From the IMG/VR virus record IMGVR_UViG_3300020042_006344, positions 1 to 28,217 of that record: a stretch of DNA of 28,217 nucleotides; one strand, given 5' to 3'. The position numbers and the translations under genes were made by a program. Below the pieces are notes generated by a model. It saw only the letters and a program-made list of their open reading frames with translations, was not told where the DNA came from and did not search any database. This document shows positions 1 to 28,217 of the stretch, in pieces. The stretch comes from a virus (taxonomy: Duplodnaviria; Caudoviricetes). Each line of letters opens with the position of its first letter. Within the stretch, counting starts at the first letter, position 1.

Positions 1-246
1 AAGCAGATTCGCAGAGTCGGCCAGTTCGACCCGAACCTGGTGCGCCAGGCGATCATCGCGAACGGCGGCGCTCCGACCGTCAAGGTGGCGCTGACTATGT
101 TCGACTACCTCTTTCCAGAGCTGCACGGCAAGAGCGAGGTGCAGCTGGACGAGGTTCAGAGGGCCTGCATTCAAGAGATCGAGGCGCAGATCGGTGCCTC
201 TGTCGGCCTGCTTGGTACCAGCCCGACGACGATGGCGTGGCTCTAA
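1..246 (+). CDS. purZ: 3' end of PurZ/PurZ0-type aminodeoxyadenylosuccinate synthetase (5' part lies outside the window)
   Basis: Frame 1 reads KQIRRVGQFDPNLVRQAIIANGGAPTVKVALTMFDYLFPE...LLGTSP, a PurA-family C-terminus; 33 of 38 aa are identical to the copy at 1969-2082 (-). Its stop TAA overlaps the next ATG (TAATG). Confidence 0.88.
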   Translation, partial: KQIRRVGQFDPNLVRQAIIANGGAPTVKVALTMFDYLFPELHGKSEVQLDEVQRACIQEIEAQIGASVGLLGTSPTTMAWL

Positions 247-650
247 TGGAACAGAACCCAAAGGAGAACCCGAACGACTGGCGCAACCTGGCCAGGCTTC
301 TGTCGGGCGAGGAGAATCCAAAGTGGGAGACCAGCACTGACGACCTTGTCGGCTGGTGGACACAGACCGCGAATGACGAACTCGGCGACGTCTTGCCAAA
401 GGCGATCGAGTACGGAAGCGCAGACTTGAAGATCATCGGCTTCGCCATGTCGCAGATGATCGGCAAGCCAACGAAAGTCACACACGAGGAGCTAGGCATC
501 GCCTTTTACTTGCTCGGCAAAGTCGCTCGGTTGATCGGTGCGTACGCAGACGGCCGCTCACCAAGTGACGACACATGGCACGATATTGCTATCTACACCA
601 AGATGGCACAGTTCGCCCGTAGCTTCGGGCAGTGGGGAGAGTTCAAATGA
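246..650 (+). CDS. MazG-like all-alpha nucleotide pyrophosphatase (DUF1599/Nmad1-like)
   Basis: Motif pattern K-x2-EYG...K-x2-R...DT-x2-D-x3-Y (PKAIEYG, GKVAR, DDTWHDIAIY) recalled for DUF1599; translationally coupled to purZ. Confidence 0.62.
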   Translation: MEQNPKENPNDWRNLARLLSGEENPKWETSTDDLVGWWTQTANDELGDVLPKAIEYGSADLKIIGFAMSQMIGKPTKVTHEELGIAFYLLGKVARLIGAYADGRSPSDDTWHDIAIYTKMAQFARSFGQWGEFK

Positions 651-1039
651 TCGTCTATTTAGCAGCACCGATCGACTTCGCAAAAGACGGGCTCATCGAG
701 AAGTACAAAGCAGAGGTCTACAGCTCGTTCAAAGAGTCTGCGTGGATCTACGACCCTTCGAGCGCTTGGACTGCGCCAGAAGATCTCGACCCAGATGGGG
801 TCATTCACCAAGCCAACCTCGCGGTCTTGCGAAAAGCAAACCTCGTGATCGCCGTCTTAGTGCGCGACACTCTGACGATCGGCACCGTGCTTGAGATTCA
901 AGACGCTGTCGATGCCAATATCCCAGTCTGCGTGCTTGGCAATATCGGGCAGAAGAGCGTCGCACTCGCAGAGCTTGAAGTGCCAGTCGTGGCTTCGATG
1001 AATGAGTTCGATGGAGACTGGAGTGACTGGCATGCGTGA
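647..1039 (+). CDS. nucleoside 2-deoxyribosyltransferase / nucleotide N-glycosidase family protein
   Basis: N-terminal IVYLAAP, a YDP motif, and GTVLEI (catalytic Glu motif) followed by A-x4-IPV; ATGA overlap with the upstream gene. Confidence 0.78.
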   Translation: MIVYLAAPIDFAKDGLIEKYKAEVYSSFKESAWIYDPSSAWTAPEDLDPDGVIHQANLAVLRKANLVIAVLVRDTLTIGTVLEIQDAVDANIPVCVLGNIGQKSVALAELEVPVVASMNEFDGDWSDWHA

Positions 1040-1463
1040 TCTCTTGTGGACCGCGCTGTCACCGACTGCGCAAGGGCCTGCAAAGGCTTATGATGACGAC
1101 GCTGGATACGACCTTTTCGTCGATCAAGACACGACTATCGAACCGAGCACCTTTGTGGATGTGCCGCTTGGCGTTGCGGTCAAGCTGCCAGAGGGCACTT
1201 GGGGCTTGCTGACTGGTCGCAGTTCGACTTTGCGCAAGCACGGGCTCATGGTGGCGCAGGGCGTTATTGATTGCGGCTACACAGGTCCTCTCTTTGCTGG
1301 CGTCTGGAACATGACAGACCAGCCAGTCCTCGTAACTCGCGGGATGCGCTTAGTTCAGTACATACTCATGCCGAATCGCTCCCTTGGCGTCTCTATTCAG
1401 CAGGTAGATCAGCTTCCCAAAACAGAGCGCGGTGCTTCTGGCTTTGGGAGCTCTGGTGTCTGA
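1032..1463 (+). CDS. dut: trimeric dUTPase-fold protein
   Basis: All five motifs are present: AGYDL, GRSS, GVIDCGYTG, RLVQ and RGASGFGSSG. Confidence 0.9.
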   Translation: MRDLLWTALSPTAQGPAKAYDDDAGYDLFVDQDTTIEPSTFVDVPLGVAVKLPEGTWGLLTGRSSTLRKHGLMVAQGVIDCGYTGPLFAGVWNMTDQPVLVTRGMRLVQYILMPNRSLGVSIQQVDQLPKTERGASGFGSSGV

Positions 1464-1968: not shown

Positions 1969-2865
1969 AAAGAGATAGTCGAACATGGTCAGCGCGACCT
2001 TGACAGTTGGAGCACCGCCGTTCGCAACGACAGCCTGGCGCACGAGATCTGCGTCGAACTGACCGACTCTGCGAATCTTTTTGGTCACTGTGGTGCGTTC
2101 GGGTTCGATGCCAAGCGCTTCCCAGCTGGTCTCGCCTTCGAGTGGTCCAGAGTTCCCAGAGACGCGAATTGGGTAGGTGCGAGCTGTCACCCAGACAGTG
2201 AAGAGATCAACAGCGCGGTCCCAGGGGCTGATGCCCGCTTGACCCAAGAAGTCGATCGCTCTGCAGTCCTGAGAGGTGCAGAAAGGGTAGTAACCTGCGT
2301 GCAAGCCCAGACCGTAGCCCTGTGTGCCCTCGATCAAGGCGGTGCCGCCTCGGGCCAAGTGCTCGCGAATCAGGCGAGAGGTGTCAACCCCGCCACCGTA
2401 AAGATTCGCTTTGCGCATTAGGCGGTCAGCACGAGCGGCGCCGATTCCCTTGCTTGTGCTGCCGACTCGCTCTGTCATGCCGCCGTCGGCTTCAATGTCG
2501 TGGTGCCTAGGCTCCAAGATCGTAGCCTGATCGTCAATGATCAGACGAGCGCTGGCTTGATACCCACCTCGGTCTAGCTGCTCGAGTTCGTCGGTCAGCA
2601 CTTCCATGTCGATCTCTGAGCCTGCCGCGATGATCAGGTCTGACTCTGGTGCTGTGACTGCGTTGACTGGCACGGTGCGCAGTCGCCAGGCGAAGTTCGC
2701 CTCGCCGTCTGGTCCTTTGCCATGTACTGTGTGACCAGCGTTCGAACCCGCCACTCTGATGCCCATGAAAGGCACCTCGCTAGTCGCAGACAGATGCCCC
2801 GCGACTGCGCCTTTGCCCTCACTGCCGAACTGGCCGCCGACTACGGCGATTAGATGTCCTGCCAT
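1969..2865 (-). CDS. purZ: PurZ0-like aminodeoxyadenylosuccinate synthetase, lacking about 43 C-terminal residues (broken after ...MFDYLF)
   Basis: GGQFGSEGKG (Ser15 in place of the PurA catalytic Asp of GDEGKG), NAGHT, GSTSKGIG, EGTQG, YPFCTS, YPIRV, TTVTKKIRR, LTMFDY; upstream RBS AGGGGGG. Confidence 0.9.
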
Positions 2866-3197: not shown

Positions 3198-3233
3198 CTT
3201 TTTCTCCTTGACCTGGGTCTAGCTCCGAGTAAC

Positions 3234-3343
3234 TCACCGACCGCCCCCCCTTATAGGGGGGGGCGAAGTCGGTGAATGTGCTCTCCGCGTGTGCCGTTAC
3301 CTGACCGACCCCTCGGCGGTGAATATCGGTCAATTCGGTGAAT
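3234..3343. repeat. palindrome plus iteron-like repeats; putative replication origin
   Basis: Inverted repeat TCACCGAC-CGC7-TTATA-G8CG-AA-GTCGGTGA (3234-3275), plus (T)CGGTSAAT repeats at 3269, 3317, 3326 and 3335, directly downstream of the primase/helicase. Confidence 0.6.
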
Positions 3344-3349
3344 CTGTTT

Positions 3350-5413
3350 TTACTCATCGAGCAACCCCTCGAAGCTCTGTAGCATGCCGACAGCGAAAGG
3401 CTTGCGATGCTTGAAATAGCGGCCGTTGCCCTGAGCGCGCAGTTCCAAGAAGCCTCGACCCTCGAGCCCTGCCAGCGCTTGCTTGATCTGATCTGAGCCC
3501 CCTTCGACCACTTGAATGATCTGGTTGGTGCTCATCTCTTGACCGTGCCCCGCCATGAACTCTGAGACTCGTTGCATCAGATGATCGCGTGCTGAAAACG
3601 CGGCTGTGCCGCCTGCTATTCCAATTTCGATCTTGTCGCCCTGTGAGATCAGTTCGGCGGTGCCGATGTAACTGGCCTCGAGCGCCATGCCACGAACGAA
3701 GCCTGGGCGGTCTTTTGTCACCTTCATGCGCAGCTTGCCGTTGGAGCCTCGACCGAAAGGCATCTCGACATCGACTGACATCGCCACGCCATCGATATCG
3801 GCTCTCTTGGCCTGCGCCCCGATCGCGTAGCTGCCTCGGTTGTCCTTGCTTTTGGTCACGTGATCGATGGTGAGCACCGCCGTACCCCACAGGCGCAGAG
3901 GTCGAAGCACGACCTGGCTGAACTGCGTGGCGTCTTTGTTCTTTTCGAGGTCTAGCCCGAGCAAGTTCATCGCCGCATTGACGCCGTCCATGACGAGCAG
4001 CGTCGGCTTCAGATCTCGAATCGATGGCAAAAGCGCCTGCTGTGCGTCAGCGTCATACGGCCCGTCTGGGTTAGAATAGTAAAAGTGCCCAAAGTGGCGC
4101 TCCTGAACACCAAGCGCCTTCAAGCGGTTGCGAATACCACGCCCTGAGTCTTCAAAGTCAACATAAAAAACCGCGTTGCCCTTGACGAGCTCTTGGCGCA
4201 CCGCTTCGAGTGCTATCCAAGTCTTTCCAGACTCTGACTCTCCAAATATCGCGTTGATCTTTCCAGCGTAGAGCAACGCCTTGCCGTCTGTCCTGAACAG
4301 GACGCTCGGCTCTGGCTCTTGGTCGTCTGCTGACCAGTCGAGTTTCTTTGGGTGCCAGCTGCTTGTCGGTTCGACTGCCTCTGGCGCCTCGAAGTCTGCC
4401 GCTGGCGCTTCGAGCATCTGCGAGACATCAACCAGCTGCAAGGTCGAGCTGCTGCTTGTGCCGAAGCCGAGATCTCGCAGGGCTCCAGCGGCCGCTTTGA
4501 AGTCGCCGCTGTGGTTGACCAGCGTGTAAACCGCGAACTTGCTATAAGCGCGCTCAGACTCGAACTGCGTGCTGGTGCTAAATACATAAAAAAAGTCTTG
4601 ACCGTCGAAGCCAGTGGTGGCCGAGATGCCGTCGTTCTTGCCTGGTCTGCGCCACGCGGTGGTCGGTCCCTTGGTGTAAACCTTTGACCAGCCCAAGGGC
4701 AGAAGCAGCTCGTCCCAGCTGGTCTTGTCGCCAAAGTCGTCACCTGGTAGCAGACCGTCGGTCGGCTTGACCGTCACCTCTGAAGCGACCACTGAGGCCT
4801 TTGGCAGCTGGTCGAAATACTTGAAAAGGCTGTGCAGTGAGTCGCGCTCGTCCTGCGTCAGAGTCGGAATCGTCTCGATCGAGCCTGAGATCAGCTGCCA
4901 CGCACGACCCGAAGGGTGACAAGCGCCGCCTGTCGGCGCGACCACGACATAACCACCTTCGCCGCGAGTCTCGACGAGGACATCGACCCCGTCGTTGTCA
5001 CCTGGTCGCCTAGCCAGTTTCGTGTTGCCTGGCACCTGCCCGTCTATGCGATAGAGCCAGTGCAGGCCGCCGCTTGGCGTGATCTCGCAATAGCCTGAGT
5101 TAATTCGCTCCCAGAGTTCTGCTAGACCGATCTGTTGTGCCATGTCTCTGGCCTGAGTGTGAAGTCCTGCGGCTACCGCTCGTCCTTCCAGCTCTAGCAT
5201 CTCGAGGTTGCCACTTATGCGACCAGTGATCAGACCGACGCCTTGCGCGGTTTCGAACCACTTGCGAAGGCTGTCCTCGGACGGCATTTCGCTCTGGTAG
5301 CGCTTCCAGCTGTCGAGTGCTGGTCTCTTGCTGCCATCGCTTGCCACTGGCACGACTGAGCAACCAGCGACCGCAAAGCGTAACGCTGCGCTGTAAACGG
5401 TTAGATCACTCAC
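3350..5413 (-). CDS. bifunctional DNA primase/polymerase (Prim-Pol) fused to an AAA/RecA-type helicase
   Basis: N-terminal Prim-Pol motifs (VVPV...KRP, GVGLITG, TPSGGLH, RGEGGYVVVAP); C-terminal Walker A GESESGKT, YVDFE, LLVMDG, IDH. Confidence 0.88.
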   Translation of the reverse strand: MSDLTVYSAALRFAVAGCSVVPVASDGSKRPALDSWKRYQSEMPSEDSLRKWFETAQGVGLITGRISGNLEMLELEGRAVAAGLHTQARDMAQQIGLAELWERINSGYCEITPSGGLHWLYRIDGQVPGNTKLARRPGDNDGVDVLVETRGEGGYVVVAPTGGACHPSGRAWQLISGSIETIPTLTQDERDSLHSLFKYFDQLPKASVVASEVTVKPTDGLLPGDDFGDKTSWDELLLPLGWSKVYTKGPTTAWRRPGKNDGISATTGFDGQDFFYVFSTSTQFESERAYSKFAVYTLVNHSGDFKAAAGALRDLGFGTSSSSTLQLVDVSQMLEAPAADFEAPEAVEPTSSWHPKKLDWSADDQEPEPSVLFRTDGKALLYAGKINAIFGESESGKTWIALEAVRQELVKGNAVFYVDFEDSGRGIRNRLKALGVQERHFGHFYYSNPDGPYDADAQQALLPSIRDLKPTLLVMDGVNAAMNLLGLDLEKNKDATQFSQVVLRPLRLWGTAVLTIDHVTKSKDNRGSYAIGAQAKRADIDGVAMSVDVEMPFGRGSNGKLRMKVTKDRPGFVRGMALEASYIGTAELISQGDKIEIGIAGGTAAFSARDHLMQRVSEFMAGHGQEMSTNQIIQVVEGGSDQIKQALAGLEGRGFLELRAQGNGRYFKHRKPFAVGMLQSFEGLLDE

Positions 5414-6953
5414 TCTCTACAATTCTCCCCAAGACCCACTCGGCCACTGGAACGGCTACTGCGTTGCCTGTCTGTTTGTAGCGCGAGCTGTCGGCTTGCG
5501 GTTTTCCGTCGCTTGTGATCGTCCAGTCATCTGGGAAGCCCTGCAGTCGCTCGCACTCGACTGGTGTCAAGCGGCGCACGACTGACTCGGCAAGCACGCC
5601 TGTGGACTGCTTGGTGCCAGCCCTGAGAGTGTGGTGCGTGTCGGCGAGGCTGTCGTTGAACTCATCGTAAGCCTGAACCGCGAGCCTTGATGCGTCGTAG
5701 CCACGAGCGCCCATAGCAGTCAGCGTCGGCACGAAGTCGCTCTCGATCGTGAGTGCCACAGCCTGAAGGCTGACCGTGTCGATGGTGTAGGCAGGGTCTC
5801 CCTCTAACCCAACGCCCATGCCGTTCTGTTTCTTTTCGCCTTCTCTTGCGTCTTGAATTGGTGTGGCTACCATCGGCACGTTATTGCCGCCAGTGCCCAT
5901 CATGGCGGTGAGCGTGCTCATGGTGTCGCCCTGAACGCGAGCGCCGTCTTCTTTGTGAGGGCTGAAAACGATCACATGTGGCGAAGTCGTGTCGATCGTG
6001 AACATCGGCCCGCCTTCGTCTGAGTGCCCTCGACCCTGCGGTCCCGATGTGTCTGCGCGACCGATGACTGTGTTCTGCACTGCGATCACCGTCGCCCGTG
6101 AGTCGCCGCCGTTGTCCATGAGGTTCAAAGTCGGCGCGGTTTCGCGCTCTGCCCAGACTTCAGCTGGCAGGTTGCCCTCGGCATCGCGCTCGCCAGATCT
6201 CACGATCTTGACATATGGCTCGACGACCAGATGTCCACTATTCACATCTTGATTAACTACCGTAGAGCGGTGATAGAGTTCGGCTGGCAGGCAGTTGGCT
6301 ACATTCGCACCGTTTGAGAGGCTGCTTCCAGCGCTTGTTGCAGCTTCGGCGGTAGGACTTTGCCCCTTCGCGTGGCTCTTCTGATGATACCCTCGGCGGC
6401 CTTCGCCGAGATCAAGTACTTCTGCAGATGCGCGCCAGTCGTCTCCAAGACAGCCGACAATGAAGACACGACGGCGTCGCTGCGCGACTCCAAAGTGCTG
6501 AGCGTCAAGAACCCTGTAAGCGAGCCCATACCCGAGTTCTGCCAGCGACCCGAGGACGATGCCCATGTCCCGTCCGTCGTTGGATGACAGCAGACCAGGG
6601 ACATTTTCGAGGACGAGCCACTTCGTTTTGGTTTCGGCTGCGAGTCTGTGAATCTCCCAGAAGAGTCCACTGCGCTCTCCTGCGAGTCCTGCCCTTCGAC
6701 CCGCAACGGACAGGTCTTGGCATGGAAACCCGCCAGTGATAATTCCGTGTTCTGGATTAAAGCCTGCACTGAGTAAGTCTCCACCTGTAACCCCCTTGAT
6801 GTCTGTGAATAAGTGAATGCCTGGGAACTGGTCGGCCAGCACCCCGCTTGCTTTTTTGTCGATCTCGACAGCGGCCACGGGTTTAATCCCTTGGCGCTCC
6901 ATAGCTAAGTCAAAGCCGCCAATTCCAGCGAACAATGAGACGCCTGTCAACAT
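5406..6953 (-). CDS. DNA (cytosine-5) methyltransferase with a long variable region
   Basis: Motifs I FAGIGG, IV GFPCQD, VI ENV, VIII QRRRR, IX RRLTPVECERLQGFP, X GNAV. Confidence 0.95.
   Translation of the reverse strand: MLTGVSLFAGIGGFDLAMERQGIKPVAAVEIDKKASGVLADQFPGIHLFTDIKGVTGGDLLSAGFNPEHGIITGGFPCQDLSVAGRRAGLAGERSGLFWEIHRLAAETKTKWLVLENVPGLLSSNDGRDMGIVLGSLAELGYGLAYRVLDAQHFGVAQRRRRVFIVGCLGDDWRASAEVLDLGEGRRGYHQKSHAKGQSPTAEAATSAGSSLSNGANVANCLPAELYHRSTVVNQDVNSGHLVVEPYVKIVRSGERDAEGNLPAEVWAERETAPTLNLMDNGGDSRATVIAVQNTVIGRADTSGPQGRGHSDEGGPMFTIDTTSPHVIVFSPHKEDGARVQGDTMSTLTAMMGTGGNNVPMVATPIQDAREGEKKQNGMGVGLEGDPAYTIDTVSLQAVALTIESDFVPTLTAMGARGYDASRLAVQAYDEFNDSLADTHHTLRAGTKQSTGVLAESVVRRLTPVECERLQGFPDDWTITSDGKPQADSSRYKQTGNAVAVPVAEWVLGRIVESE
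6299..6784 (-). CDS. nested alternative-frame ORF inside the methyltransferase (M.EcoHK31I beta-like arrangement)
   Basis: 161-codon same-strand ORF ending SLSAVLE...KYLISAKAAEGIIRRATRRGKVLP, a pattern recalled from overlapping ORFs in C5 MTase genes; start codon uncertain. Confidence 0.6.
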   Translation of the reverse strand: METYSVQALIQNTELSLAGFHAKTCPLRVEGQDSQESAVDSSGRFTDSQPKPKRSGSSSKMSLVCCHPTTDGTWASSSGRWQNSGMGSLTGFLTLSTLESRSDAVVSSLSAVLETTGAHLQKYLISAKAAEGIIRRATRRGKVLPPKLQQALEAASQTVRM

Positions 6954-9735: not shown

Positions 9736-10011
9736 TCATTTAAGTCGAGCCGTTTCTTGTTCATTGAAGATCTCTCTCAGTTCGAGATCGATGTCATGCG
9801 GCGAATGGTAGTAAGCGCTGACTGATCGATCGCCAGAGACTAGCAGCAGGCACCAAAGGCTTGCTGGTAGCTGGATGCGGTACCACTGACCCAAGGATGT
9901 GATGCCTTTGAGCTCGAAGTGGTCTAGTAGGTCGCCCTGTGTTAGTCTTTTCTGGGCTTTGCTTTGGTTGGTATTCTCTTCAACCCTAACTGCGTATTTG
10001 TATGAGTACAT
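9736..10011 (-). CDS. hypothetical protein
   Basis: AGGGGGAAGG RBS before the ATG at 10011. Confidence 0.55.
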   Translation of the reverse strand: MYSYKYAVRVEENTNQSKAQKRLTQGDLLDHFELKGITSLGQWYRIQLPASLWCLLLVSGDRSVSAYYHSPHDIDLELREIFNEQETARLK

Positions 10012-10064
10012 CGAGGTCCTTCCCCCTGTTGTTGGATTAGCGTAACACGCCACCCGAGCGCCTG

Positions 10065-11303
10065 TCAAAGCGACACGCCGTCCTGAGCCGTCGCTGCCGC
10101 AAGCATCGCGCGCAGTCTGGCCAGAGCCTCGAATGTGTGGTTGATCTGTGGTGCTGGGCAGCTCTCGACTGCCCCGTTCTCCCGCGCCTTTTCGTAAGCC
10201 TGATCCCTCGACAGGCCTTCTCGGATTAAGCGGTTCATCTTGGTGGTGGTGCCTTGCTGTTTGATGTTCTGGTGCATGCCGACGTGGTTGATGTCGAGCC
10301 TGCTGACCAGATCTGAAGTCGCAAGGAGCACGTGCTCAGTGATCGCGCACAGATCTGGCAAAGCGATGCGCTCGACTGACGAGTGCGAGATGTCGCGTTC
10401 GTGCCAGAGTGCTATTCCCTCGGTGATCGGCATGACATAAGACCTTGCCAGGCGTGCCAGACCTGAGATCTTTTCAGCCGTGATCGGGTTGCGCTTGTGT
10501 GGCATTGAGGACGAACCTCGCTGCCCCTTGGCGGTGCCTTCAAAGATCTCGGCCACCTCGCTGCGCTGTCCGTGCCTGATCTCGAGCGCCAGGGCCTCGC
10601 ACACCGTGACGACATTAGCGAGGCTGTAAGCCCAAGCGCCGAGGCTGTCACGCATAAGAACCTGAGTCGAACTATCTGGCACATTGAGCCCGAGCGCCCC
10701 GCAGACTGCGATCTCGACATCTCTGGGCACGTGCACGTAGTTGCCTAGCGGTCCCGAGATATGGCCGACCCTGACCTGATCTGCCGAAGCCACAAAGCGA
10801 TCAAGAGACCTAGCCAGTGCGAGTGCGATGTCTGCGACTCTGTAGCCCCAGCTGGTCGGTTCTGCCGCTTGCCCGTGAGTGCGCCCTTGTCTGATCGTGC
10901 CTCGGTGCTCAGTGGCGTGTGCTATCAGTTCAGACAGAAGCGTGTAGCCAGCGTTGCCGATAAGCACATTCGCCTGAAGCAAGATCAGAGCCTGGGCGGT
11001 TTCGACGACATCAGAACTCGTCAGCCCGTAGTGCAACCAGCGATGGACGCCTTCGTGCTCAGTGTTCTCTTTCCAAGCGGCTAAAAAGGCCATGAGGTCA
11101 TGGCGCAGCGTCTCCTCTTGGGCACGCATCTGTTCAAGCGACGGCCTGAGCGTGAGCTCAAGGTGCATGTGCATATCGGGCGGCACGATCTCGAACTGCC
11201 CTTGCGCTTTCATCACCTCGATCTCGACGACCGCCCAGTGCAGGACTTTGTTAGCGTCGGACCAGACTAGGCGCATCTGGGGCGAGCAATAGCGCTCGAT
11301 CAT
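10065..11303 (-). CDS. purB: adenylosuccinate lyase
   Basis: MIERY start, HD, HYGLTSSD, GRTHGQ, the fumarase-superfamily signature GSSSMPHKRNP, and WHERDISHSSVER; ATGA-coupled to the upstream phage gene. Confidence 0.95.
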   Translation of the reverse strand: MIERYCSPQMRLVWSDANKVLHWAVVEIEVMKAQGQFEIVPPDMHMHLELTLRPSLEQMRAQEETLRHDLMAFLAAWKENTEHEGVHRWLHYGLTSSDVVETAQALILLQANVLIGNAGYTLLSELIAHATEHRGTIRQGRTHGQAAEPTSWGYRVADIALALARSLDRFVASADQVRVGHISGPLGNYVHVPRDVEIAVCGALGLNVPDSSTQVLMRDSLGAWAYSLANVVTVCEALALEIRHGQRSEVAEIFEGTAKGQRGSSSMPHKRNPITAEKISGLARLARSYVMPITEGIALWHERDISHSSVERIALPDLCAITEHVLLATSDLVSRLDINHVGMHQNIKQQGTTTKMNRLIREGLSRDQAYEKARENGAVESCPAPQINHTFEALARLRAMLAAATAQDGVSL

Positions 11304-11479
11304 TCGAGCCCCTTGACGATTCGAATGGCTCGATCGATGAGCGCGCTTTCGGCTAGGTTGTCGCACTGCTGGCAGACGCACAACGGCATCATCTTGCTCT
11401 CTAGATCTTTGGCGATCTGAGCCCTAGCGGTGGCTACCGCGATCGCTATGAACTCGTGCCCCTCTGGTGATGGGCTCAT
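11300..11479 (-). CDS. small hypothetical protein (CxCxxC)
   Basis: MSPSPEGHEF...LCVCQQC; ATGA overlaps at both ends. Confidence 0.6.
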   Translation of the reverse strand: MSPSPEGHEFIAIAVATARAQIAKDLESKMMPLCVCQQCDNLAESALIDRAIRIVKGLE

Positions 11480-11607
11480 TTCTTGGTGTAGTCTTTCAGC
11501 GCTTGGTTGATGACTTCGGAGACGCTTGTCTCCTCTCGCTCTGCCAGTTTGCGCGCTGCTTGCCATAGGTTGTCCGAGACTCGGACGCTTCTGATCGGTG
11601 TGCTCAT
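11476..11607 (-). CDS. ribbon-helix-helix DNA-binding protein
   Basis: MSTPIRSVRVSDNLWQAARKLAEREETSVSEVINQALKDY, a typical RHH pattern; absent from the ORF track (43 aa). Confidence 0.75.
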   Translation of the reverse strand: MSTPIRSVRVSDNLWQAARKLAEREETSVSEVINQALKDYTKK

Positions 11608-12839: not shown

Positions 12840-12886
12840 TGTCTTACCTTCCGTTTTTAGGGGCTTTTCCCCGTCCTTATGAGATA

Positions 12887-12945
12887 AGCGTACCATGCCG
12901 TCCATACGCTGTCAATACAAAAAGATGGCGCGTGTCGGCGTGTCG
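12887..12945 (-). promoter_or_regulatory. sigma70-type promoter, copy 1
   Basis: TTGACA (12915-12910), 17 nt spacer, TACGCT (12892-12887) with extended TG; upstream tandem CGACACGC. Confidence 0.8.
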
Positions 12946-13103
12946 TGTGTGAAGCTGGTCACATCGCTACGCGTGGCAGCTGCAGTCGCAGGGACGGCGA
13001 CGGCTCGGGAAAGCGCCCATATGGGCGACCCGAGTGCAACGCTCGTGCTGATCTGTGGCGCACTTGGCTGACTGAAAGGTCGCCAGATACTCGCGCACGC
13101 CCT

Positions 13104-14011: not shown

Positions 14012-14054
14012 TTTCTTGCCTTCCGTTTTTGGGGCTTCCTGCCCTTATGAGATA

Positions 14055-14113
14055 AGAATACCATGCCGTCCATACGCTGTCAATACAAAAAGATGGCGCG
14101 TGTCGGCGTGTCG
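14055..14113 (-). promoter_or_regulatory. sigma70-type promoter, copy 2
   Basis: TTGACA (14083-14078), 17 nt spacer, TATTCT (14060-14055); 14059-14113 is identical to 12891-12945. Confidence 0.8.
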
Positions 14114-14149
14114 CATGTGAGGTTGCTCACACCTTCGAGACATAGATGA

Positions 14150-26059: not shown

Positions 26060-26111
26060 CTCGGCCTTTACCTCTTCGCGGCGCGTACAGGTTTAGGACT
26101 TTAGGAGAGAC

Positions 26112-26561
26112 ATGGCAGGCAAAGGCCCAGCGCCGAAACCAGCAAGTGAACGCAGGCGTCGCAACGCTGACCCAGTGCCGACTCAGGTCGTTACTGCCGA
26201 CGGCGCCGTTCGCGGTCCAGAGCTGCCAAAAGGCTACGAGTGGCACATGCAGACGATCAAGTGGTGGCAGACTTGGCGCGTCTCACCGATGGCCTCGACC
26301 TTCACTCAGACCGACTGGGACTTTCTACTTGACACTGCGATCTTGCACTCTGCTCACTGGAACGGCGAAAACACAGCCGCCGAACTGCGCATCCGAGTAG
26401 CAAAGTTCGGCGCCACACCCGAGGACAGACTGCGTCTGCGCCTACAAGTGGACACCGCGCAAGACGCGAGCAAGACGACAAGCAAGACTTTGACAGATCA
26501 GCGGCGTACTCGCCTATTGAAGGTCGTGGGGGACAATGACCAAGAAAGCACAGCAGTCTAG
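26112..26561 (+). CDS. terminase small subunit
   Basis: GKGPAPKP...RRRRN, WW-x2-W, TDW-x2-L, ELR-x4-FGATP-x-DR-x-RL; AGGAG RBS; precedes TerL. Confidence 0.85.
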   Translation: MAGKGPAPKPASERRRRNADPVPTQVVTADGAVRGPELPKGYEWHMQTIKWWQTWRVSPMASTFTQTDWDFLLDTAILHSAHWNGENTAAELRIRVAKFGATPEDRLRLRLQVDTAQDASKTTSKTLTDQRRTRLLKVVGDNDQESTAV

Positions 26562-28092
26562 CTTCAAGTCGCTCGGTTGGGTGGCCATTGACTGGATAGA
26601 GACTTACTTGGTCCACGGGCCAGGCGATGTGCAGGGCGAGCCGATCGTTTTGGACGACGAGCAGGCCACCTTCATACTCAGAGCCTACGAGATCGACAAA
26701 AACGGCAAACGCACGACACGACGCGCCTTCTTCTCGCGTTCAAAGGGCAGAGCCAAAAGCGAACTCGCTGGAATGATCGTCTGCTTTGAAGCACTCGGCC
26801 CAGCGCGTTTTGACCACTTTCTGGCTGACGGCACACCCGTCGGTCGTCCAGTGCAGTACCCTTTCATTCGGTGCCTCGCCACAGAAGAAAGCCAGTCTGG
26901 AAACACCTACGACAACGTGCGCTACATGCTCGAGCACGTCAAAACGAACTTCGGCAGCGACTACCCAGGCATTGATATCGGCTTGACTCGCACCATCTTG
27001 CGAGGTGGCGGCGAGATCATTCCATCGACAGCGGCGTCAGCCTCGAAAGACGGCGGCAAGGAGTCCTTCGCCGTTGCAGACGAGACGCACCTGTACTCGT
27101 CGCCTGAACTCAAACGAATGCACGAGACCGTGCGACGCAACCTAGCAAAGCGCAAAGCCGCAGACCCTTGGATGCTCGAGACTTCAACGATGTACGCAGT
27201 CGGCGAGGACTCGATCGCAGAACAGACGCACAGGCTCTGGGTGGCGATGCAAGAAGGCAGAGCAAAAAACCCTGGCCTCTTGTTCGATCACATACAAGCG
27301 CCAGAAGTTCCAGATCTGCAGAACACCGAGCAGCTGAAAAAAGCGCTCGCAGTCGCCTATGGTCCAGCATTCGCTTGGCTCGACATCGACAGACTCGTCA
27401 ACGAGATACAGGACCCGATGACCAAGGGCTCAGACGCAAGACGCTACTTTTTGAACCAGCCTTCCACTGACACCGACAAATACATGGACTCGATCGCGTG
27501 GAACAAGGCAGCAGAACCAGAGCAGCTGGCAGACGGCACGACCGTCGTGCTCGGCTATGACGGCAGTCGCAAAGACGACGCCACCGCTTTAATCGCTTGT
27601 CGGGTCGAGGACGGCAAGATCTTTCAGATCGCCTGCTGGGAACGACCACCTGGCCCAGCTGGATACGGCTGGGAAGTGCCACGCATCGAAGTCGATGAGG
27701 TGGTGCGCGAGACTTTCGAGAAGTACGACGTTCGTTCGATCTGGGCAGACCCTTCGGGCTGGCAGTCGTACCTCGATGCTTGGAACACGACCTTCGTCGA
27801 TCGAGTGGTTGCGGTCTATCCAGCCAGCCAGCGCAAGCTCATGGCTCAGGGTTTAGACCGCTTTCTTGAAGACACACTCGAAGGCAGACTTAAGCACGAC
27901 GGCTCGCCAGAGCTGACTCGGCACGTATTGAACGCGATACCAGCTCGCTACGGGCAGGTATCCAAACCATCGCAAACGCACAAGATCGACGGCTTGATCG
28001 CTGCAGTCCTGGCCTACCTTGGCAGAACAGACGCGCAGCTTAACCAGCCAGAAGTCAAAAACGCGACGCAGTTCTTTGCGTTCGAGGTCTAG
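26536..28092 (+). CDS. terminase large subunit
   Basis: Walker A RSKGRAKS, Walker B VADE, nuclease motifs LGYDGS-x2-DD and KIDG. Confidence 0.93.
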   Translation: MTKKAQQSSFKSLGWVAIDWIETYLVHGPGDVQGEPIVLDDEQATFILRAYEIDKNGKRTTRRAFFSRSKGRAKSELAGMIVCFEALGPARFDHFLADGTPVGRPVQYPFIRCLATEESQSGNTYDNVRYMLEHVKTNFGSDYPGIDIGLTRTILRGGGEIIPSTAASASKDGGKESFAVADETHLYSSPELKRMHETVRRNLAKRKAADPWMLETSTMYAVGEDSIAEQTHRLWVAMQEGRAKNPGLLFDHIQAPEVPDLQNTEQLKKALAVAYGPAFAWLDIDRLVNEIQDPMTKGSDARRYFLNQPSTDTDKYMDSIAWNKAAEPEQLADGTTVVLGYDGSRKDDATALIACRVEDGKIFQIACWERPPGPAGYGWEVPRIEVDEVVRETFEKYDVRSIWADPSGWQSYLDAWNTTFVDRVVAVYPASQRKLMAQGLDRFLEDTLEGRLKHDGSPELTRHVLNAIPARYGQVSKPSQTHKIDGLIAAVLAYLGRTDAQLNQPEVKNATQFFAFEV

Positions 28093-28099
28093 GAGATCA

Positions 28100-28217
28100 A
28101 TGAAAACGAAACTCAACTGGTCAGTGGTGATCGAGGTTAGCGGCTTAGCTGCTGCAACCTGTGGCCTTGCCATGCTGTCAGTGCCAGTCGCACTCATCGC
28201 GCTCGGCTCATTCCTTG
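28100..28217 (+). CDS. small membrane protein (partial), typical of the position between TerL and portal
   Basis: AGGAG RBS; MKTKLNWSVVIEVSGLAAATCGLAMLSVPVALIALGSFL runs off the window. Confidence 0.65.
   Translation, partial: MKTKLNWSVVIEVSGLAAATCGLAMLSVPVALIALGSFL

Follow-up and report, generated by a model that had tools for sequence, protein, structure and literature searches.

A freshwater phage purB gene belongs to an old phage lineage that travels with PurZ0 and very likely serves the lyase step of Z synthesis

Some phages carry genes for replacing the adenine of their DNA with 2-aminoadenine (Z). Open-access accounts still give the second step of Z synthesis, the lyase reaction that yields dZMP, to the host. 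A phage gene for adenylosuccinate lyase (PurB) on the same DNA as a purZ-type synthetase gene raises the question of whether some phages bring this enzyme themselves and, if they do, what they gain from it. We analyzed such a locus in a virus record of 28,217 nt (IMGVR_UViG_3300020042_006344; hereafter, the window), which is tailed phage sequence from freshwater runs. Part of the purB region is present in 20 of the 21 listed runs (16 studies). An earlier note on this DNA had proposed that the gene encodes a dedicated lyase that completes the Z pathway. Phage PurB proved to be common among PurZ0 phages and is apparently unstudied, which leaves a gap in a much-studied pathway.

The purB ORF begins with ATG, ends with TGA, and contains no internal stop (Table 1). 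Its product matches the TIGR00928 (purB) equivalog model over the whole protein with 334.7 bits (cut-off 326.2) and Pfam Lyase_1 with an E value of 7e-33; pcaB, argH, XcbD, and other fumarase-superfamily models score far below their own cut-offs on it. Among solved structures, it is closest to those of short-type PurBs, including 2PFM, 2X75, and 1F1O. As catalytic features we looked for His (141), the Ser loop SSxMPxKxNxxxxE, His68, His89, and Gln212, and the phage protein has the signature SSSMPHKRNP..E at residues 263-277 together with His143, Ser264/265, Lys270, Asn272, Glu277, His68, His91, and Gln214. Its start codon overlaps the stop of the upstream ORF (ATGA, 11300-11303), and its stop codon overlaps the start of the downstream ORF (TTGA, 10065-10068). 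This downstream 110-aa ORF, which has no Pfam, NCBIfam, or PHROG match, comes after purB in 25 of the 26 relatives, and the other one ends within purB. Upstream of purB, a 94-nt repeat is present in two copies (12870-12963 and 14038-14131; 90% identical), each carrying TTGACA-17-TA(T/C)(T/G)CT directed toward purB. The earlier note had described an intact gene with the full signature, translationally coupled to its neighbors and lying downstream of duplicated promoters, and all of this stood. So did its view of the protein as divergent with a shortened C-terminal region, as the phage PurB has 412 residues, compared with 431-436 in cellular short-type PurB, and its last helices are replaced.

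A 43-aa ORF for a putative ribbon-helix-helix protein lies directly before purB in L001 and L002; in the window (11300-11479 and 11476-11607, minus strand), an extra 59-aa ORF stands between the 43-aa ORF and purB. Contigs from RNA libraries match only short pieces of purB (163 nt with 0 mismatches, one run), which are too short for a call on transcription.

Table 1. Positions of purB, its expression signals, and the Z-pathway and replication genes in the window
Feature	Positions	Strand	Basis
purB (412 aa), adenylosuccinate lyase of the short, B. subtilis-like class with a remodelled domain 3	10065..11303	-	
Shine-Dalgarno-like AAGGGG	11309..11314	-	sequence; 5 nt before purB start
110-aa ORF, TTG start overlapping purB stop	9736..10068	-	
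sigma70-like promoter copy 1, TTGACA-17-TATTCT	14055..14083	-	
sigma70-like promoter copy 2, TTGACA-17-TACGCT	12887..12915	-	
purZ0 codons 1-299 (GGQFGSEGKG, KIRRVGQFD), cut by mis-join at 1969	1969..2865	-	
purZ0 3' end on inverted, mis-joined segment	1..246	+	
134-aa ORF, no family match, directly after purZ0	246..650	+	
DmtZ-like nucleoside deoxyribosyltransferase (dAMP hydrolase/transferase)	647..1039	+	PF05014
DutZ-like trimeric dUTPase homologue (dATP/dGTP pyrophosphatase)	1032..1463	+	PF00692
Prim-Pol + AAA_25 helicase, sole polymerase-like gene seen	3350..5413	-	

The partner synthetase gene starts at 2865, 7.2 kb from purB on the same strand, and so the distance of about 7 kb given in the earlier note was right, but the type of the gene had to be corrected from purZ to purZ0. 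PurZ0 was reportedly described by Tong in 2023 in phage Archimedes. The window protein matches NF038379 with a score of 327.5 (cut-off 300), has Ser at the position of PurA Asp13 and the KIRRVGQFD pocket as in Archimedes PurZ0, and finds its best PDB match in 7VF6 (E 7e-86). By these motifs and matches it is of the PurZ0 type.

The window copy of purZ0 ends abnormally, and its 3' end is found on the opposite strand. In G010, which is 99.6-99.9% identical to the window over most of its length, purZ0 is whole and colinear; contigs from two independent runs join position 148 to position 1969 on opposite strands, and the first ~110 nt of the inverted segment derive from a second strain. A broken purZ0 gene was therefore rejected: purZ0 looks broken because of an assembly mis-join at 1969. 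Compared with G010, positions 1-1972 and 26076-28217 of the window are inverted, which is an assembly artefact. The second join, near 26080, leaves the terminase genes flipped, and the capsid gene lacks its first codons. The window also lacks ~3 kb that holds the portal and protease genes in relatives; of the two junctions, the first was compared with other runs. In or near the stretch that is absent from the window, between terminase and portal, relatives carry a putative 365-aa glycosyltransferase-like ORF, a label taken from sequence (L396:14194-15291 in G356; also G011).

In the relatives, the gene order is purB, orf110, resolvase, transglycosylase, orf101, Cas4-like nuclease, a 151-aa ORF, an optional methyltransferase, Prim-Pol/helicase, orf106, purZ0, orf134, dmtZ, and dutZ. 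The methyltransferase, a C5-cytosine enzyme of 515 aa with a long insert (window 5406-6953, minus strand), is present in L001, L007, L014-L017, L024, and L025 and absent from others; a 161-aa ORF at 6299-6784 overlaps its gene in another frame. Just downstream of the Prim-Pol gene lies a GC-rich inverted repeat (CCCCCCCTTATAGGGGGGG, 3233-3275) at which many foreign contigs end, and which is possibly an origin or terminator common to related phages. Two contigs labelled provirus have no recognizable host genes in their mapped parts.

Next to purZ0 are dmtZ and dutZ, whose family membership is assigned by similarity to the Ghobes proteins. The DmtZ-like protein is 41% identical over 69 aa to Ghobes gp53, including its Asn77 and Glu103, the roles of which are described in the accessible part of PMC12884076, and the DutZ-like protein is 49% identical to Ghobes gp55. 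A homologue of the 134-aa ORF follows purZ0 in Archimedes and other PurZ0 phages. We saw no kinase gene among the window ORFs scanned, and the earlier statement that purB completes the pathway was therefore too strong. Besides purB and purZ0, no further purine-synthesis genes were seen in the window.

We then asked how closely purB is tied to purZ0. Searching viral sequences with the PurB query gave 69 loci, of which 26 form a close clade (59-99% identity). All 15 close relatives with a contig long enough to cover the purZ0 position have the gene; the remaining 11 of the 26 contigs end before it. In the reverse test, 43 PurZ0 records, including Hiyaa and Archimedes, were searched from the best 80 of 273 PurZ0 loci, a sample chosen by likeness to the clade's PurZ0, so that co-occurrence is biased toward relatives. 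A PurB homologue was found in 23 of the 43, and in 13 of the 18 that are at least 90% complete; in one of the five near-complete misses, the record breaks off in the gene that lies immediately downstream of purB, at the point where purB would start. Among GenBank phage records, 35 match PurB, and 11 of these represent eight PurZ0 phages in which a PurB-like gene is already labelled: the Streptomyces phages Hiyaa (gp76), Galactica (gp75), Spocter, and Keanu, and the Gordonia phages Ghobes (gp36), Archimedes (gp38), Frizzle, and Sapo. The premise that described Z phages rely on host PurB thus does not hold for these eight. Of the 24 matches outside the PurZ0 phages, the one inspected, MaAM05, has its purB among bacterial housekeeping genes. 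On every contig that allowed a check, members of the phage PurB clade occurred together with PurZ0.

The gene is also conserved. dN/dS is about 0.08 for purB, ranging from 0.045 to 0.126 (9 pairs), compared with 0.057-0.076 for purZ0 (3 pairs), which indicates equally strong purifying selection on the two genes. Each catalytic residue is retained in 70 or 71 of 71 clade proteins.

The nearest cellular proteins are PurBs of 434-436 aa from Actinomadura, Parafrankia, and related actinomycetes, with 42-50% identity. In a mixture-model tree of 40 rows, the 15 phage rows, with Hiyaa, Galactica, Ghobes, and Archimedes among them, group in a single clade (support 98/97) that is sister to the cellular short-type PurB of actinomycetes (100/98; joint 100/100). 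Sixteen further short-type copies from PurZ0 records joined this clade in a quick tree (26 rows), in which all 19 short-type copies grouped with the window PurB (SH-aLRT 98). The exact place of the Gordonia pair is unsure because of its very long branch. Four rows in the clade (P0066, P0073, P0075, and P0089) are of unverified gene context; a scan of viral sequences with P0066 gave no match. P0074, which joins an alphaproteobacterial-like front half to a clade-like back half and is probably a chimeric assembly, was dropped after the first tree.

Since the phage proteins form a separate clade with at most about 50% identity to cellular ones, these sequence comparisons exclude a recent host capture, and the window gene is not nested among such captures. 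The simplest reading is one ancient capture inherited with purZ0, and we place the window purB in an old lineage that is restricted to phages and accompanies PurZ0. The tie to the Z pathway that the earlier note proposed thus passes both the tree and the co-occurrence tests. We conclude that purB is a real, well-conserved gene whose product very likely (about 85%) performs the lyase step of dZMP synthesis. Its location counts against this reading, as purB lies 7 kb from purZ0 and outside the purZ0 cluster, and so do the absence of DpoZ from this clade, the avoidance of A-containing palindromes in many clade sequences, and the PurZ0 phages of other hosts that have no purB match, all described below.

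By the route that we infer, DutZ would convert dGTP to dGMP and dATP to dAMP, and PurZ0 would succinylate dGMP with GTP and aspartate; the chemistry of PurZ0, DutZ, and DmtZ is taken from the accessible parts of PMC12884076 and bioRxiv 2025.10.22.683976. During infection, the phage PurB would then cleave N6-succinyl-2-amino-dAMP to dZMP and fumarate, with fumarate removed by the usual His143/Ser264-265 beta-elimination. Host kinases would produce dZTP, and DmtZ would destroy dAMP and salvage Z.

Why a phage should keep its own lyase may depend on the host. The long-type PurB of some hosts may handle the 2-amino substrate poorly, so that PurZ0 phages bring a lyase, and phages of hosts with an E. 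coli-type PurB can lose it. This explanation, which is compatible with the pathway role proposed above, is plausible, but we would give it somewhat less than an even chance. Actinomycete PurB comprises three classes: the short class, found in 88 of 301 sampled actinomycete genomes at E 1.5e-81 or better (6 of the 88 are unpublished genomes, on which no other count depends); the long mycobacterial class of Streptomyces, Nocardia, Tsukamurella, Mycolicibacterium, and Nanopelagicaceae; and the E. coli class of Arthrobacter, Microbacterium, and Agromyces. The long type is present in 80 of 81 genomes in the Nocardia/Mycolicibacterium family sample and in 40 of 41 in the Streptomyces family sample, and the E. 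coli type in 51 of 51 in the Microbacterium family sample and in 40 of 41 in the Arthrobacter family sample. Gordonia, itself unnamed in the sample, is presumably a member of the Nocardia/Mycolicibacterium family of GTDB.

Among cultured PurZ0 phage records, all six from Gordonia and all five from Streptomyces have purB, and it is absent from those from Arthrobacter (105) and Microbacterium (18) and from one Curtobacterium phage. purB is thus dispensable for the pathway in Arthrobacter and Microbacterium hosts. A divergent purB hidden in these phages was rejected, as four queries gave no match. However, the Micrococcales phages fall on a single PurZ0 branch with weak support (87), and their lack of purB may go back to one loss; three other near-complete records without purB carry no host label. 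For the window phage, habitat makes freshwater Nanopelagicaceae a plausible host group, and these have the long type, but the E. coli type is found in the Microbacterium family, including its small genomes from freshwater.

A candidate cause of poor handling lies in the pocket. In S. aureus PurB, Thr95 bonds adenine N1 (PMC2917274, accessible part). Beside adenine N1, the short type carries Thr/Ser, whereas Arg occupies this position in the long type at all 48 genome loci and in all 91 full-length matches; the long type also has Gly in place of Arg301. The position of the Arg relative to C2 comes from alignment rather than from a liganded structure. Four of the 23 purB-bearing PurZ0 records have taken a long-class gene. 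One is full length (L374:1501-2964, plus strand, in the 94 kb record G387, which has PurZ0), and in it the host Arg is replaced by Ala. The other three encode mini-PurBs, in which domain 3 is missing along with the Ser loop and the His hairpin. Arg is retained in one of them, in G375, and replaced by Ala in the other two. The wider mini-PurB family has Ala in 29 of 29 proteins, although it was gathered with an Ala-bearing query. Few independent events underlie the pattern.

The mini-PurB family (L387:1000-1845 on the minus strand, L388, L389, L408, and L413; P0325-P0414, 29 proteins) consists of long-class derivatives of ~240-285 aa that keep the nucleotide-pocket motifs and have lost both catalytic loops and domain 3. 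Such a protein could donate its pocket to the host tetramer or inhibit it. A metagenome scan for mini-PurB found mostly cellular long-type genes, with one mini among 80 loci, and a mini-PurB profile, in a search without a positive control, had no match in five PurZ0 records without purB. L409 (44% complete, with no PurZ0 match) carries a full-length long-class PurB in which the host Arg is replaced by Ser.

These observations suggest a broader reading, which we offer tentatively and rate as rather less probable than its negation: the lyase step would be a host-range barrier for Z genomes. The long-type PurB of Streptomyces, Mycobacteriaceae, and freshwater Nanopelagicales would exclude the 2-amino substrate through one Arg, and PurZ0 phages of these hosts would have found three solutions, namely, an anciently captured short-type PurB (as in the window), a captured long-type PurB with Arg replaced by Ala, and a mini-PurB that is itself incomplete as a catalyst but would supply the host tetramer with a pocket containing Ala; the window phage would do so without DpoZ. 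The link between phage purB and host PurB class is new here. If true, the pattern would tell which bacteria support Z DNA unaided and which lyase suits the building of Z DNA in actinomycetes.

Alternatively, the phage gene may serve dose only, the host PurB being capable but rate-limiting, inhibited, or poorly expressed, so that a phage copy raises the flux to dZTP. The effect would be greatest for a phage without a Z-selective polymerase, and the window clade appears to be of this kind. DpoZ (family A polymerase, PF00476) was not found in any of four relatives that are 96-100% complete, two of them with terminal repeats; the relatives G011, G054, G006, and G009 are PurZ0 phages of 32-35 kb with a Prim-Pol/AAA_25 gene in place of a family A polymerase, and the long ORFs of G011 include no other polymerase-sized ORF. 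Together with the lack of DpoZ, the early-gene position of purB behind two strong consensus promoters and the unchanged generalist pocket argue for dose. Mycobacterial PurB is reportedly slow, as found by Banerjee in 2014. Many purB-bearing PurZ0 phages have Pol A, however (no Pol A match was found in 6 of 18 near-complete PurZ0 records), and dose explains neither the capture of purB from a class other than the hosts' own nor the Arg-to-Ala change in long-type copies. We regard dose as the sole explanation as somewhat doubtful.

The lack of DpoZ also means that Z substitution may be partial. Of the 22 clade sequences, 20 avoid CCGG (window, 0 observed and 71 expected), which would suit a site that Z cannot shield. 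GATC, CATG, AATT, or TTAA is avoided in 14 of 22 clade sequences in a strain-specific manner, the window itself not being among them; full Z substitution might make avoidance of such A-containing palindromes unnecessary. AGCT is also avoided in 3 of 27 Pol-bearing loci. According to the accessible part of PMC12944874, dZ mostly blocks an AATT cutter, and 47% of 147 enzymes still cut dZ DNA. Palindrome avoidance across the whole window and L001-L025 may point to host restriction systems together with partial Z substitution.

A further possibility builds on the specialization for the 2-amino-deoxy substrate that the earlier note raised: the phage enzyme would have become specialized in this way and would no longer act on adenylosuccinate or SAICAR. 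Its long stem and its low identity to the nearest cellular enzymes would fit such a change, as would the clade-specific residues, which include Gln145, His181, and Lys278, and loss of AMP-forming activity would suit an adenine-depleting phage. We compared the residues with the ligand contacts of S. aureus PurB given in the accessible part of PMC2917274. The nucleotide-binding residues Arg4, Tyr5, Asp69, Thr/Ser95, Arg301, Ser306, and Arg310 are all present, and two phosphate contacts are substituted: Asn276 is replaced by Lys278 (the actinomycete sister clade has Arg at this position), and Arg326 is lost. We found no pocket residue that sets all PurZ0-phage PurBs apart from the cellular enzymes, which argues against specialization, and the proposal was thus not borne out. 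In S. aureus PurB, the contact to the substrate 2'-OH is a backbone carbonyl (PMC2917274, accessible part), and so a preference for deoxy substrates would leave no side-chain mark.

The remodelled domain 3 could also be taken as a sign of specialization. The predicted structure has the PurB fold (mean pLDDT 86.5), with domains 1 and 2 intact and a domain 3 that is modelled as two helices, a linker, and one long helix rather than the complete five helices. In the part of PMC2917274 that is accessible, no active-site residue is named in the replaced part, and domain 3 is trimmed differently among phage lineages (365-469 aa). The shortened domain 3 thus probably reflects relaxed constraint rather than specialization. 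We consider specialization unlikely; the phage enzyme is probably an ordinary broad-pocket short-type PurB, as judged from its residues, and not re-engineered.

The weakest alternative is that purB is a general purine-boosting auxiliary gene unrelated to Z. Jumbo phages with canonical purA and purB offer precedents: L045, L066, and L068 carry Asp-type PurA together with PurB, and PurB without a synthetase match is present in two jumbo records that are at least 90% complete. The PurBs of those viruses lie in other branches, however, and the window phage (32-35 kb) combines a Ser-type synthetase with enzymes that remove adenine. The tree and the co-occurrence largely refute this very improbable reading. 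Other viruses with purB carry either canonical Asp-type PurA or other Ser-type synthetases. In the jumbo and mid-size viruses L060, L051, and L032 (records of 257-427 kb), and L030, L034, L053, L058, and L069, purB occurs with Ser-type homologues of PurA that do not belong to the PurZ0 group. Since the PurBs of these viruses are in other branches, purB has been paired with Z-type synthetases more than once.

The pairing of purB with Z genes is already annotated in cultured phages, and the window gene adds to a lineage that is unstudied. We found no study or enzyme assay of a phage PurB in the open-access literature consulted. In the accessible main text of PMC12884076, PurB is never named, and a legend in its supplement attributes PurB, Gmk, and Ndk to hosts "or uncharacterized phage proteins." The accessible parts of bioRxiv 2025.10.22.683976 and PMC12783734 term PurB host-encoded, and those of PMC8342488 and PMC8065100 do not mention it.

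The closest known counterparts are the PurB-like genes of the eight cultured phages, which have the same PurZ0 partner and also lie 4-8 kb from purZ0 rather than adjoining it. Those of Hiyaa, Galactica, Ghobes, and Archimedes fall in the same phage clade as the window PurB. The annotated proteins are 32-41% identical to the window PurB, and their domain 3 is remodelled differently, giving lengths of 457-461 and 365-377 aa. These phages have DNA polymerase I (DpoZ), whereas the window clade, a widespread group of freshwater PurZ0 phages, does not. Compared with cellular short-type PurB (the B. subtilis/S. aureus class, TIGR00928), the window enzyme has all catalytic residues in common but has a linker and one helix instead of the last three helices of domain 3, and no ADSL_C domain is listed for its clade. 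The PurZ0/DutZ/DmtZ pathway of Ghobes, Wayne, and Archimedes (PMC12884076, accessible part; PDB 7VF6) shares its PurZ0 motifs with the window, and Ghobes has separate DmtZ and DutZ genes, as the window does; the window clade differs in having no DpoZ and an optional C5-methyltransferase, and the scheme in that part of PMC12884076 leaves the lyase to the host or to uncharacterized phage proteins. Cyanophage S-2L, as described in accessible accounts, resembles the window phage in having a primase-polymerase and no family A polymerase (DpoZ). S-2L combines an ATP-type PurZ with DatZ and MazZ and uses host enzymes for the later steps, whereas the window phage has PurZ0, DutZ, DmtZ, and its own PurB.
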